A model generated the notes under the pieces. It was not told the origin of the DNA. It was given only the letters and a program-made list of their open reading frames with translations, and did no database searches. Shown piece after piece: positions 19,282 through 20,880 of a stretch of 64,000 bases of DNA (the first letter of the stretch is position 1; every line of letters begins with the position of its first letter). The position numbers and the translations under genes were made by a program. The stretch is from contig CAYTED010000004.1 in the NCBI GenBank assembly GCA_964436855.1, positions 3,627 to 67,626 of the forward strand, written 5' to 3'. Source of the DNA: an uncultured Bdellovibrionales bacterium (GTDB taxonomy: Bacteria; Patescibacteriota; Minisyncoccia; Moranbacterales; UBA1568).

Positions 19282-20880
19282 AGAAAGGAGGTGATTCATC
19301 CACAGCTTCCGCTACGGATGCCTTGTTACGACTTCGTCCCTATCACTAACCCCACCGTAGTTCCCGATTTGACCCGGGACCTTCTGGTGTTGCCAGCTCT
19401 CTTGACGTGACGGGCGGTGAGTACAAGATCCGAGAACGTATTCACCGTGGCATGTCTGATCCACGATTACTAGCGATTCCGGCTTCATGGAGTCGAGTTG
19501 CAGACTCCAATCCGAACTGGGGCCGGGTTTTTGGGATTGGCTCCCCCTCGCGGGTTGGCTACCCTTTATAACCGACCATTGTAGCACGTGTGTCGCCCAG
19601 GATGTCAAAGGGCCATGCTGATTTGACGTCATCCCCTCCTTCCTCCCAGCCCTTTATTCGCGATGCGAACAGAATGTCGAATGGAGAATTTCGAATTTCG
19701 ATTCAAGACCGATTTCGAGAATTCATGAATTCAGAATTCATTCAAAATTCTAAATTCAATATTCATCATTCTGCGCGTCACGCGCAAAGGGCTGGGCAGT
19801 CTGAAGTGACACTTGTAACACTTCATAGGGGTTGCGCTCGTTTCCCGACTTAACGGAACACCTTACGGCACGAGCTGACGACAACCATGCAGCACCTGCC
19901 AAGCACCCTCGAAGGCCTACCCATTTCTGGGTCCTGCAGCTTGGTTTCAAACCCTGGTGAGGTTCCTCGCTTACCGTCGAATTAAACCACATGCTCCACC
20001 GCTTGTGCGGATCCCCGTCTATTCCTTTGAGTTTTAAGCTTGCGCTCGTACTTCCCAGGCGGCATACTTATCGCGTTAGCTTCGGCACGGAAAGGGTCGA
20101 TTCTCCCCACACCTAGTATGCATCGTTTAGGGCGTGGACTACTGGGGTATCTAATCCCATTCGCTCCCCACGCTTTCGCAGCTCAGCGTCAGAAATGTGC
20201 CAATCAGTTGCCTTCGCCTTGGGTGTTCCTCATGATATCAACGCATTTCACTACTACACCATGAATTCCACCGATCTCTCACATTCTCGAGGTATGCCGT
20301 TTCGAATGCCTGTTCCCGGTTAAGCCGAGAGATTTGACATCCGACTAACAAACCCGCCTACCTGCGCTTTACGCCCAATAAATCCGGATAACGCTTGAGG
20401 TCTCTGTATTACCGCTACTGCTGGCACAGAGTTAGTAACCTCTTATTCCTTAGGTACCATCATCGTAATTTTTCCCTAAGAAAAGCAGTTTACAATCCGA
20501 AGACCGTCTTCCTGCACGCGGCGTCGCTCGTTCAGGCTTTCGCCCATTGACGAATATTCTCGACTGCAGCCACCCGTAGGTGTTTGGACAGTGTCTCAGT
20601 TCCAATGTTGGGGGCCATGCTCTCACACCCCCTACCCGTCATAGCCTTGGTGAGCTATTACCTCACCAACGAGCTGATAGGACGCAGGCCTCTCCTTGAG
20701 CGATAAATCTTTACTCCGTAGAGCATATCGCGTATTATTCCGGATTTCTCCGGATTATTCGCGACTCAAGGGAAAGTTCCTACGCGTTCCGAACCCGTTT
20801 GCCGAGGGTCTAAACCCTCTCGACTTGCATGCCTTATCCACGCCGCCAGCGTTCATCCTGAGCCAGGATCAAACTCTCAA
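19282..20880 (-). rRNA. rrs: 16S ribosomal RNA, carrying an approximately 150-nt intervening sequence
   Basis: 5' end AGAGTTTGATCCTGGCTCAG (rc at 20858-20877). 3' end GGATGAATCACCTCCTTTCT with anti-SD. Universal blocks GTGCCAGCAGCCGCGGTAA, GCATGGTTGTCGTCAGCTCGTG and TGTACTCACCGCCCGTCACG read on the minus strand. Confidence 0.95.
19645..19796 (-). other. Intervening sequence (IVS) inside the 16S gene, between ACTGCC and GGAGGAAGG (helix-40-region equivalent)
   Basis: E. coli has a 13-nt hairpin here. This gene has about 150 nt, closed by CCCAGCCCTTT...AAAGGGCTGGG. It contains a GCGCGTGACGCGC hairpin and AATTCGAAATTC-type repeats. Confidence 0.6.

Follow-up and report, generated by a model that had tools for sequence, protein, structure and literature searches.

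The 16S rRNA gene of this Moranbacteria-like (CPR/Paceibacteria) genome carries 142 nucleotides in place of the terminal loop of helix 40, and we consider it probable (at roughly 0.7) that this is the local version of a clade-wide, fast-evolving helix-40 extension of the Paceibacteria/Parcubacteria rather than an intron or a freshly transposed element. As read from the gene sequence, the extension is part of the 16S precursor transcript, and in the predicted fold it turns the native helix 40, 8 bp long, into a rod of roughly 50–60 base pairs. The interior of this rod is built from 7-nt units with a conserved 4-nt core, here GAAU in the 5′ arm and AUUC in the 3′ arm, and the modelled pairing of one arm with the other leaves roughly one mismatch per 7-nt unit.

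Position, fold and composition of the extension

The 64-kb stretch of DNA analysed here (the window) holds a single rRNA gene, a complete 16S gene, in which the following parts of the extended helix 40 can be distinguished.

19284–20884, minus strand: 16S rRNA gene, complete, 1601 nt (Rfam RF00177, 1403.4 bits, model positions 1–1533)
19650–19791, minus strand: helix-40 extension, 142 nt in place of the 5-nt terminal loop
19792–19799, minus strand: native helix 40, 5′ strand (CUGCCCAG), aligned to model pairs
19785–19791, minus strand: stem extension P1, 5′ strand CCCUUUG, pairing with 19650–19656 (covariation)
19740–19771, minus strand: rod 5′ arm, GAAU-N3 heptads in the RNA sense, ATTC-phased on the plus strand (phased-motif search, TRF period 7, lag-7 tract)
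19672–19703, minus strand: rod 3′ arm, AUUC-phased heptads in the RNA sense (phased-motif search, lag-7 tract)
19650–19656, minus strand: stem extension P1, 3′ strand UAAAGGG (fold and covariation)
19642–19649, minus strand: native helix 40, 3′ strand (CUGGGAGG), aligned to model pairs

The first-pass annotation had reported a large insertion in this gene, closed by an 11-bp helix and made of short AT-rich repeats, and on these points it was right. Covariance-model re-alignment of 19284–19960 places 142 nt between CUGCCCAG and CUGGGAGG, against 5 model positions, which correspond to the helix 40 terminal loop (about 1166–1170 in E. coli). The distance from ACTGCC to GGAGGAAGG is 148 nt (19647–19794), compared with about 11 in ordinary bacteria. 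The 11-bp closing helix is present, formed by CCCAGCCCTTT (19645–19655) and AAAGGGCTGGG (19786–19796), as are the internal strings that had been quoted; its outer 5 bp are native helix 40, and together with the remainder of the native stem it gives about 15 contiguous pairs. The extension has a GC content of 40% compared with 51% for the 16S gene, and its RNA fold reaches −69.9 kcal/mol against −39.7 ± 3.8 for shuffled sequences (z = −7.95), with none of 200 shuffles folding as well.

Group I or II introns are frequent in CPR 16S genes (PMC11270868), and repeats in metagenome-assembled genomes can be mis-assembled, making it worth considering whether the extra sequence is a self-splicing or protein-assisted intron, or an assembly artefact. 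Either origin is very improbable. An Rfam scan of 19600–19850 returned no intron or other RNA family at E ≤ 10, the 142 nt contain no ORF, and the site is a terminal loop and not a conserved core position. An artefact is likewise at odds with the presence of the same architecture in dozens of independent assemblies, one 168-nt version being identical on five independent contigs (L063, L068, L072, L073 and L076). An intron or a known sRNA was set aside as a candidate after this permissive scan. Besides 16S, its matches were solely miRNA-precursor hairpin models, far below threshold. On the plus strand, an 87-aa ORF at 19590–19853 merely overlaps the rRNA sequence.

Occurrence across the clade and the covarying base

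Extended helices of this kind are widespread among the relatives. Most of 48 genome loci, which are mainly of Parcubacteria type, and 25 of 29 metagenome loci (those with extractable helix-40 content) carry 40–207 nt at the same place, compared with 10–17 nt in helix 40 of the loci that are not of Parcubacteria type. A basal extension of about 40 nt is found in essentially all Parcubacteria-type sequences retrieved, and the relatives' extensions fold into rods, with z from −4.4 to −8.8. Across the 48 relatives, the P1 stem is paired in 97.3% of cells compared with 69.7% in shuffles, its covariation score is 0.662 compared with at most 0.146 when the partners are slid, and all nine of its variable pairs have changed on both sides. 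Judged by these sequences, P1, the lowest part of the rod, is kept paired by selection.

The version in the window is alignable with those of L063 and L075 along both arms, with 49 consensus pairs of which 11 are compensatory; its identity to the L063 extension is 65.5%, compared with 49.7 ± 1.9 for a shuffled partner, while the 16S genes are about 91% identical to both relatives over a 600-nt segment. The insertion is neither private to this genome nor recent. A variable-region expansion common to other taxa, which the first-pass annotation had named as grounds against its own reading, is largely what the sequences show: helix 40 is lengthened, on a covarying base, in nearly all the Paceibacteria 16S genes retrieved, and the window version is homologous over its full length to the extensions of L063 and L075.

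Heptad periodicity in the extensions and in the window

In 31 unique long extensions, the autocorrelation at lag 7 is 0.465 against 0.284 expected (z = 23). Lag 14 is also raised (z = 14) and lags 8 and 15 weakly so (z about 3); lag 3 shows a deficit (z = −4.9). All remaining lags stay within 2 sd, and in 23 of the 31 extensions the strongest lag is 7. The same register occurs outside the rRNA gene. With a relaxed threshold for the lag-7 tract detector (a stricter setting gave a single tract), lag 7 accounts for 11 tracts in the window and lag 14 for 4, with 0–2 at any other lag from 4 to 16. In the relatives' non-16S flanks (373 kb) the counts are 27 for lag 7, 17 for lag 14 and 0–14 for other lags. 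A search for four phased ATTC-N3 units with at most one mismatch gave 11 matches in six window tracts, compared with 0.01 expected: both arms of the insert, two sites in tsaD and two spacers. The tracts outside the 16S gene, together with those built on other cores, are as follows.

8222–8253, plus strand: heptad tract phased on ATTC, 3′-terminal in the first of two in-frame tsaD insertions (amino acids 128–160) (phased-motif search)
8501–8525, plus strand: heptad tract phased on ATTC, 3′-terminal in the second of these tsaD insertions (amino acids 228–257) (phased-motif search)
12972–13003, plus strand: ATTC-phased heptad tract in the spacer separating valS from a PrsW-like gene, shortly upstream of the ATG (13012) (phased-motif search)
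42735–42766, plus strand: ATTC-phased heptad tract in the rpsG–rpsL spacer (phased-motif search)
42667–42692, plus strand: CAATT-phased heptad tract in the rpsG–rpsL spacer, a single arm without a hairpin (fold z = +2.06)
42051–42181, minus strand: fusA–rpsG spacer hairpin of about 130 nt, with arms of CAATT-N2 and AATTG heptads (fold z = −3.89)
58199–58258, plus strand: AAAATTC-type heptads in the ybeY–yqeY spacer (TRF period 7, 6.9 copies)

The gene names fusA, rpsG, rpsL, ybeY, yqeY and tsaD are confirmed by Pfam, and an alignment to a solved TsaD (3zet) breaks at residues 127/161, which is the first tsaD insertion. The fusA–rpsG hairpin is followed by U8 on the gene strand.

These results qualify the earlier proposal that one motif fills the 16S insertion, tsaD and the spacers of the ribosomal-protein operon. 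The phased ATTC heptad does recur in insert, spacers and tsaD, whereas generic k-mer sharing gives no such link: 8–12-mers common to the insert and the rest of the window show no excess over dinucleotide shuffles at k = 8–9 and are borderline at k = 10–12, so that the motif exceeds shuffled sequence in a phase-aware test and not in an unspecific one. In the operon, one rpsG–rpsL tract has the ATTC unit, but the spacers there mostly have another core, CAATT-N2 (the fusA–rpsG spacer and part of the rpsG–rpsL spacer), which is related to but distinct from ATTC-N3. As for a repeat that is actively spreading, the 64 kb contain no second full-length copy of the 142-nt element, the longest exact matches being 12–13 nt, and the repeat unit alone is shared, which gives no support to a spread by transposition.

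Turnover among relatives

Above its conserved base the extension changes quickly. Extensions of 172 and 45 nt, or of 168 and 43 nt, are found in genomes whose flanking 16S segments of 600 nt are 99.5% identical, and a neighbour-joining tree of about 600 nt interleaves long and short forms. Between L020 and L038, with 99.0% identity in the 16S segment, extension identity is at the random level and the repeat class has been replaced. Between L063 and L075 the extensions are 76.6% identical and the 16S segments 98.7%, so that the extension has changed at about 18 times the rate of the remaining gene. The extensions of L024 and L029 differ in length by 39 nt, which is not a multiple of 7. Other cores (AGCU, AAUU, GUAU/AUAC, AACG and CACG) occur in close lineages, some of which have only about 43 nt, and several unrelated heptad units are found within the single genome of L039. 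Simple deletion between direct repeats was rejected as the whole origin of the short forms; L052 and L053 hold sequence that is absent from the long forms of their nearest relatives.

A similar hairpin is found elsewhere in the same genome in L020 (intergenic), L016, L039 and L018 (a second 16S site). In L020 the two hairpins have about 36 nt near the loop in common, apart from about 3 differences of which one is a 1-nt indel, and in L016 they share a loop-proximal stretch of 35 nt. Extensions also share more 8-mers with the flanks of their own genome than with those of other genomes (mean rank 9.4 against 12.5 expected), the best seven extensions ranking 1, 1, 1, 2, 2, 3 and 3 of 24. To judge from these sequences, the second-site hairpins point to copying between sites rather than purely local growth.

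One may ask, essentially with the first-pass annotation, whether a mobile miniature palindromic element, similar to the Rickettsia palindromic elements or to MITEs, is now spreading and has inserted itself into helix 40, into spacers and, in frame, into tsaD. The phased heptad common to these places, the second-site hairpins, the excess of 8-mers shared with own-genome flanks and the difference in presence and absence at 99.5% identity of the 16S segment are all in keeping with such an element. We nonetheless regard it as unlikely. Within the 64 kb there is no second full-length copy and k-mer sharing is at the level of shuffles, the tracts have a repeat unit in common but no unique ends, and one genome, as in L039, can hold several unrelated units. 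Furthermore, throughout the clade the extension keeps a fixed base that is homologous and covaries, and the window version is old enough to be alignable with relatives at about 91% 16S identity. Direct repeats do flank the interior in L003 (CCTTTTG), L075 (CATTTG...CATTTG) and L063 (CATCTG), and weakly in the window (TTTG/TCTG), but helix geometry would account for them, since two stacked helices of the same sequence are expected to give such repeats. The Rickettsia palindromic elements described by Ogata and colleagues in 2000 are reportedly discrete units of 100–150 bp with many full-length copies. The tracts described here resemble them as AT-rich hairpin-formers of a reduced genome that turn up in spacers, in stable RNA genes and, in frame, in conserved protein genes, and differ from them in that the sites in the window have just a 7-nt unit in common.

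The arms themselves could instead be what matters, in which case the extension would be a functional, retained expansion segment whose GAAU/AUUC units provide, on the head of the 30S subunit, a binding platform for a partner RNA or for a protein specific to the lineage. Arms phased on GAAU/AUUC are seen in lineages far apart from one another (the window, L063, L062, L016 and L003) and can be aligned over about 9% divergence of the 16S segment, the regular spacing of the mismatches suggests a defined geometry, and working E. coli ribosomes tolerate insertions at the helix-40 site (PMC2441807). However, close lineages have quite different cores or only about 43 nt, near-identical 16S segments come with unrelated or no long interiors, between L063 and L075 the extension has evolved about 18 times as fast as the remaining gene, and the same heptads occur in protein-coding tsaD, which is a DNA context without structured RNA. 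These observations make a binding platform quite improbable.

A possible route of growth and loss

Taking the extension to be a fast-evolving elaboration of helix 40, we can sketch how it might have been built. From the pattern of the repeats we infer that the interior would grow and shrink by slipped-strand mispairing in a 7-nt register; the same pattern suggests that the second arm may be matched to the first through hairpin-templated (quasi-palindrome) correction. Whole interiors would occasionally be lost or swapped, probably through recombination in the conserved 16S sequence on either side, or with a second heptad hairpin in the genome serving as template. The 7-nt-register process may also leave tracts wherever extra sequence is tolerated, in spacers and in protein surface loops such as those of TsaD. 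The sequence of the rod probably has no specific function, the tip of helix 40 being a permissive site: an E. coli 16S rRNA with an insertion at h39/h40 (1153–1162) works (PMC2441807).

It is tempting to go further and propose that a dedicated or lineage-typical process working in 7-nt register in the Paceibacteria builds, homogenises and seeds rod-like hairpins at rRNA helix tips (helix 40 and others), in spacers and in protein surface loops, candidates being replication or repair that is biased toward template switching or slippage, or else some factor able to recognise 4-nt cores in phase. This proposal is speculative and on balance doubtful. If it held, the helix-40 rod would be the most visible product of a genome-shaping mechanism new for CPR bacteria, and the 16S rRNA would be either naturally fragmented or among those with the largest head expansions of any bacterial small subunit.

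A parallel for such growth exists in the P6b stem-loop of the group I intron in Nostoc tRNA-Leu(UAA), which contains 7-nt motifs of Class I (TDNGATT) and Class II (NNTGAGT) (PMC4476775). In both cases the stem-loop lies at the periphery of a structured RNA, its two arms consist of degenerate 7-nt repeats that conserve a 4-nt core, its length varies as units are gained or lost on both sides, and one repeat class repeatedly takes the place of another, independently of phylogeny. The two cases differ in phylum and in host RNA, which in Nostoc is an intron, they show no sequence homology, and helix-40 extensions use many cores compared with only two classes in Nostoc. The likeness is best read as an analogy of mechanism and not as homology, although the occurrence of a 7-nt register in spacers and, in frame, in a conserved enzyme does parallel the cyanobacterial heptanucleotide repeats.

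Fate of the rod and its likeness to known insertions

Intervening sequences removed by RNase III are known from 23S helices 25 and 45 of Salmonella, Yersinia, Campylobacter, Leptospira and Coxiella, with rare cases in 16S. The helix-40 extension resembles them in many respects: about 100–200 extra nucleotides replace the terminal loop of a conserved helix and fold into one long stem that is AT-richer than the gene and has neither an ORF nor an intron core, and the rRNA gene is present in a single copy in a reduced genome. Sporadic occurrence, typical of such sequences, is seen in part: the long form comes and goes among very close relatives (99.5% identity of the 16S segment), while the basal part of about 40 nt is essentially universal in the clade. 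In contrast to such sequences, helix 40 of 16S is not a classical site and the interior is made of 7-nt repeats. Short ORF-less CPR insertions at 23S helices 25 and 45 are assumed to be of the RNase III type (PMC11270868).

The extension may also be compared with retained expansion segments, such as eukaryotic es9 near h39/h40 and the engineered E. coli 16S insertions (PMC2441807), in that the same region of the 30S head tolerates extra RNA: the tip of the helix is exposed to solvent and accepts insertions, its base is conserved and its end variable. Unlike typical expansion segments, the helix-40 extension turns over far faster. We lean slightly toward RNase III-type trimming without religation over retention as a true expansion segment on the 30S head. 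In the case of trimming, the 16S rRNA would exist in two pieces held together by P1, and bacteria carrying the extension would have a split 16S rRNA; in the case of retention, the 30S head would bear a rod of about 50–60 bp despite ribosomes that are otherwise reduced. A six-frame search of the 64-kb window gave no RNase III signature, a result that is uninformative at that size.

Short, uncharacterised insertion sequences in CPR 16S genes go back to Brown et al. 2015, as summarised in PMC11270868. According to the catalogue of Tsurumaki et al. 2024, 139 of 378 16S insertions, more than one third, have no intron or annotated ORF, most of them being shorter than 200 bp, and as described there this class is left uncharacterised. 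The helix-40 extension matches it in organism group, size class and the lack of intron or ORF features. Helix 40 may be one of the catalogue's hot spots 16IS1–10, for which the text and supplement give no coordinates; heptad periodicity, a covarying base and a link to tracts outside rRNA go unmentioned in its description of the class. The helix-40 class now has a clear anatomy, consisting of a covarying base and a heptad-periodic rod.

There are also practical consequences. Because the rod changes much more rapidly than the remainder of the 16S gene, it could serve for strain-level typing of uncultured Paceibacteria, and the range of 40–207 nt affects amplicon length, alignment, chimera checks and probe design in the region of 16S positions from about 1100 to 1400.

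Modules near the base of the rod

Two small modules lie between P1 and the heptad arms.

19773–19785, minus strand: small GC-rich module A (GCGCGUGACGCGC), from sequence reading
19657–19669, minus strand: small module C (UUCGCAUCGCGAA), from sequence reading

In structural models, module A can form a local hairpin or be part of the rod by pairing with module C. The consensus fold made with the relatives pairs A with C, and among the few sequences compared there is compensatory support both for the rod and for a four-way junction in which A and C are local hairpins. Homologues of module C, of the form ...CTGTTCG..CGCGAATA..., are found in L063, L075 and L057, and those of module A, with differing stem sequences, in L063, L075, L057, L003, L007, L020 and others.

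Position and conservation of the helix-40 extension

Re-alignment of the 3′ third of the 16S rRNA gene to its covariance model reveals one single large deviation, in the loop that caps helix 40 (model positions 1156-1162). There the gene reads CUGCCCAG-[142 nt]-CUGGGAGG, as against 5 nt in the model.

19284-20884, minus strand: complete bacterial 16S rRNA gene (RF00177, 1403 bits)
19650-19791, minus strand: extra sequence in helix 40 (model re-alignment)

The first-pass annotation had reported an insertion at 19645-19796. The insertion is indeed there, with the 11-bp closing helix and the internal strings that were quoted for it, although those limits also take in native helix-40 pairs. 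A scan of the 64 kb for RNA genes found this one 16S gene and six tRNAs, four of them clustered at 15613-16766, and no LSU or 5S match anywhere; the 16S gene is unlinked to 23S/5S genes, and its neighbors are a 483-aa ORF with a Big_13 domain (downstream) and a 178-aa unannotated ORF (upstream).

The extension has a GC content of 40% (51% for the 16S gene) and a predicted folding energy of -69.9 kcal/mol, compared with -39.7 ± 3.8 in dinucleotide shuffles (z = -7.95). It contains no ORF of its own, and at E ≤ 10 its only matches in Rfam are to 16S and to generic, far-sub-threshold miRNA-precursor hairpin models. The strong fold, together with the lack of an ORF and of any Rfam family, intron families included, identifies it as a long hairpin and not a group I or group II intron.

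Extension of this helix is shared across a clade. Searching species representatives with a lineage-typical 30-mer from just downstream of helix 40 gave 48 loci, most of which are labeled Parcubacteria, Paceibacteria, Moranbacteria, Azambacteria or Liptonbacteria, and 29 more came from metagenomes scanned with a helix-39 pattern; by 16S identity, the nearest kin of the window organism are Moranbacteria-type sequences (90-92%). In almost all Parcubacteria-type sequences helix 40 is extended, with 40-207 nt between ACTGCC and GGAGGAAGG, so the insertion is not private to this genome; in the handful that belong to other types, this stretch measures 10-17 nt. Aligned without gaps, the terminal 13 nt at either end of 48 distinct extensions, plus the native stem, yield a 14-pair closing helix in which 97.3% of cells are paired (69.7% with shuffled partners) and two-sided changes occur in 9 of 9 variable pairs. 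Its covariation score of 0.662 falls to 0.146 or less once partners are shifted by 1-3 columns. RNA structure is therefore maintained at the base of the extension, and the closing helix is under selection. Folded alone, nine long extensions from relatives form rod-like hairpins (z -4.4 to -8.8), and a 43-nt short form is a plain hairpin (z = -5.8).

In the extensions of L003, L075 and L063 (relatives' 16S loci from these scans), the last 6-7 nt of the closing-stem 5′ strand recur as a direct repeat just before the 3′ module (CCTTTTG, CATTTG and CATCTG, respectively). Their long form therefore resembles two tandem copies of a short hairpin with a heptad rod between them, for which both a rod and a four-way junction are possible folds.

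A 7-nt register in the interior

Autocorrelation within the interiors of 31 distinct extensions, each at least 75 nt long, gives a match fraction at lag 7 of 0.465 versus 0.284 ± 0.008 in shuffles (z = 23), with a second peak at lag 14 (z = 14). There is a slight elevation at lags 8 and 15 (z about 3) and a depletion at lag 3 (z = -4.9), and all remaining lags lie within 2 sd; lag 7 is the best lag in 23 of the 31. Each heptad consists of a conserved core of ~4 nt and ~3 variable positions. The core of the 5′ arm is complementary to that of the 3′ arm, and it changes from lineage to lineage.

Heptad cores (5′ arm / 3′ arm) in the window and in relatives' loci
GAAU / AUUC: window, L063, L062, L016, L003
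AGCU: L020, L039
AAUU: L018, L024, L029
GUAU / AUAC: L031, L036, L038
AACG / CGUU: L047
CACG / CGUG: L041
CAAU / UUGA: L057

Age and turnover

We compared extensions with a 16S segment that begins at the ATTAGATACCC motif (E. coli ~785), ends near position 1400 and measures ~600 nt without the extension.

Pairwise identity of extensions (lengths between conserved flanking blocks) and of the 16S segment
Window / L063 (148 / 168 nt): extension 65.5% (shuffled partner 49.7 ± 1.9); 16S 90.7%
L063 / L075 (168 / 172 nt): extension 76.6%; 16S 98.7%
L020 / L038 (108 / 131 nt): extension 52.9%, the random level; 16S 99.0%
L075 / L053 (172 / 45 nt): extensions not aligned; 16S 99.5%
L063 / L052 (168 / 43 nt): extensions not aligned; 16S 99.5%

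The window extension can be aligned with those of L063 and L075 along both arms, with 49 consensus pairs, 11 of them compensatory. Because its identity to the L063 extension exceeds the shuffled level at 90.7% 16S identity, the window version is old and not a recent arrival. Turnover of the helix-40 extension is nonetheless very fast: between L063 and L075 the extension has diverged about 18 times as much as the rest of the gene, and long and short forms are interleaved in a neighbor-joining tree of the 16S segment. In L052 and L053 the short forms hold sequence that is absent from the long forms of their nearest relatives and thus are not products of simple deletion; replacement of the whole tip, for example by recombination via the conserved flanks, would explain them more naturally. 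The L020/L038, L075/L053 and L063/L052 pairs, whose interiors are unrelated or differ greatly in length despite 99.0-99.5% identity over 600 nt of 16S, suggest that recombination within the 16S gene exchanges cassettes.

Phased tracts elsewhere in the window

It had also been proposed that the insertion belongs to a repeat family that fills several spacers and an insertion in tsaD. The 8-12-mers common to the insert and the rest of the window (both strands) show no excess over a shuffled insert, and there is no second full-length copy in the 64 kb; it is searches aware of phase that decide the matter. The window holds unusually many period-7 tracts, with 11 for lag 7, 4 for lag 14 and 0-2 for each other lag from 4 to 16, and four successive ATTC-N3 units (at most 1 mismatch) give 11 matches in six tracts, with 0.01 expected.

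ATTC-phased tracts from the phased-motif search
19672-19703, minus strand: extension arm
19740-19771, plus strand: extension arm
8222-8253: tsaD
8501-8525: tsaD
12972-13003: spacer
42735-42766: rpsG-rpsL spacer

What some of the proposed sites have in common is therefore a phased 7-nt motif, and not copies of one element. Within the window, arrays of (A/G)AAATTC are confined to tsaD and the extension. A different core, CAATT-N2, is found in the fusA-rpsG spacer and in another part of the rpsG-rpsL spacer. The fusA-rpsG spacer (42042-42190) forms a ~130-nt hairpin (z = -3.9) with heptad arms CAAUU-N2 / AAUUG, followed by U8 on the gene strand, and may separate rpsG from fusA as a large terminator or attenuator.

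Gene identities in the window were confirmed by Pfam. Alignment of the window TsaD (tsaD 7753-8991) with solved bacterial TsaD structures is interrupted at residues 127/161 and 227/258, revealing two in-frame insertions of ~30 residues each (at about 8134-8232 and 8434-8523), both ending in an ATTC-phased heptad tract. A set of three heptads is 21 nt long, which preserves the reading frame and gives rise to short peptide repeats, for example SKFENQNSKF.

Adjoining a tRNA gene (45579-45649) is a period-7/14 tract (45656-45697; AAAACAC / AAACCACAAAACCC) with an 11-nt tandem repeat; the core of the tract is neither ATTC nor CAATT.

Relation to known systems and fate in the ribosome

That a CPR 16S gene carries an insertion is ordinary by itself. 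The extension belongs to the short, ORF-less, non-intron insertions, which make up 139 of 378 CPR 16S insertions (PMC11270868), a class known and so far uncharacterized. In internal build, its closest analogue is the P6b stem-loop of the Nostoc tRNA-Leu intron, which has 7-nt motifs (TDNGATT or NNTGAGT), changes length by gain or loss of units on both sides, and has had its motif class replaced repeatedly (PMC4476775). Our literature search returned no paper linking heptamer or heptanucleotide repeats to CPR, Patescibacteria or Parcubacteria. As far as it showed, several robust features are undescribed: an extension of helix 40 that spans the clade, covaries and has a 7-nt register, its presence/absence polymorphism at 99.5% flanking 16S identity, and the occurrence of the phased motif in spacers and a conserved enzyme gene. 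The initial observation is confirmed, and its interpretation is supported in part: the same phased motif is present at some spacers and in tsaD, though not as copies of one element.

The tip of helix 40 is a tolerant site: growth is normal with an E. coli 16S that carries inserted sequence at 1153-1162 (h39/h40) (PMC2441807). Position, fold, selection on the closing helix, 7-nt periodicity, homology with fast turnover, and the phased motif at other permissive sites are established here; for the underlying process, we envisage that the interior would lengthen and shorten through slipped-strand mispairing in a 7-nt register, with the complementary arm brought into line by hairpin-templated correction. 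Now and then the whole interior would be replaced, either in a recombination event or with another heptad hairpin as the template for copying. The sequence of the extension probably has no sequence-specific function.

Classical bacterial intervening sequences are cut by RNase III without religation. The extension has just their form, which speaks for excision of the rod from mature rRNA. Where PMC11270868 cites Brown et al. 2015, CPR rRNA insertions are reported as removed from transcripts, which likewise speaks against a rod retained in the mature ribosome. Both the regularly spaced mismatches in the rod and the partial conservation of its arms argue for retention. On balance we give excision a probability of roughly 55%, so that retention is a serious alternative, if slightly short of an even chance.

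Heptad tracts in relatives' genomes

In the non-16S flanks of relatives (373 kb), lag 7 again has the most tracts, with 27, followed by lag 14 with 17 and the other lags with 0-14; their units are diverse, at times several per genome. Some genomes have a second hairpin outside helix 40 with the same unit as their own helix-40 rod.

Tracts matching the genome's own helix-40 unit, and second insertions
L020: second hairpin in an 85-bp spacer; ~36 nt in common with the helix-40 rod, ~3 differences
L016: second hairpin of GAATCTT heptads, 4282-4348, ~900 nt downstream of 16S
L039: several tracts of its own unit outside helix 40
L018: second hairpin insertion of ~110 nt with GAAU-phased heptads, locus about 3556-3666, inside its 16S

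The L018 insertion lies about 430-545 nt from the 16S 5′ end, judged by distance alone; helix 40 is therefore not the sole rRNA site colonized. Across 24 genomes, 8-mer sharing of extensions is somewhat higher with own flanks than with others' flanks (mean rank 9.4 versus 12.5 expected; one-sided p estimated at ~0.01), to which base composition may contribute.

A 142-aa ORF of L016 (4468-4896, minus strand), which bears the LAGLIDADG-type motif LVDGEGSF, adjoins the second hairpin and is itself ~340 nt away from the 16S 3′ end on the downstream side; the L016 locus yielded no 23S gene. Two different genomes each have, at a similar distance upstream of 16S, a run of five or six (G/A)TTACTG heptads that closes with GTTACTATTTCA (~560 nt upstream in L020, 3062-3109; ~740 nt in L046, 4648-4694); these runs may represent a conserved regulatory or promoter-associated array.
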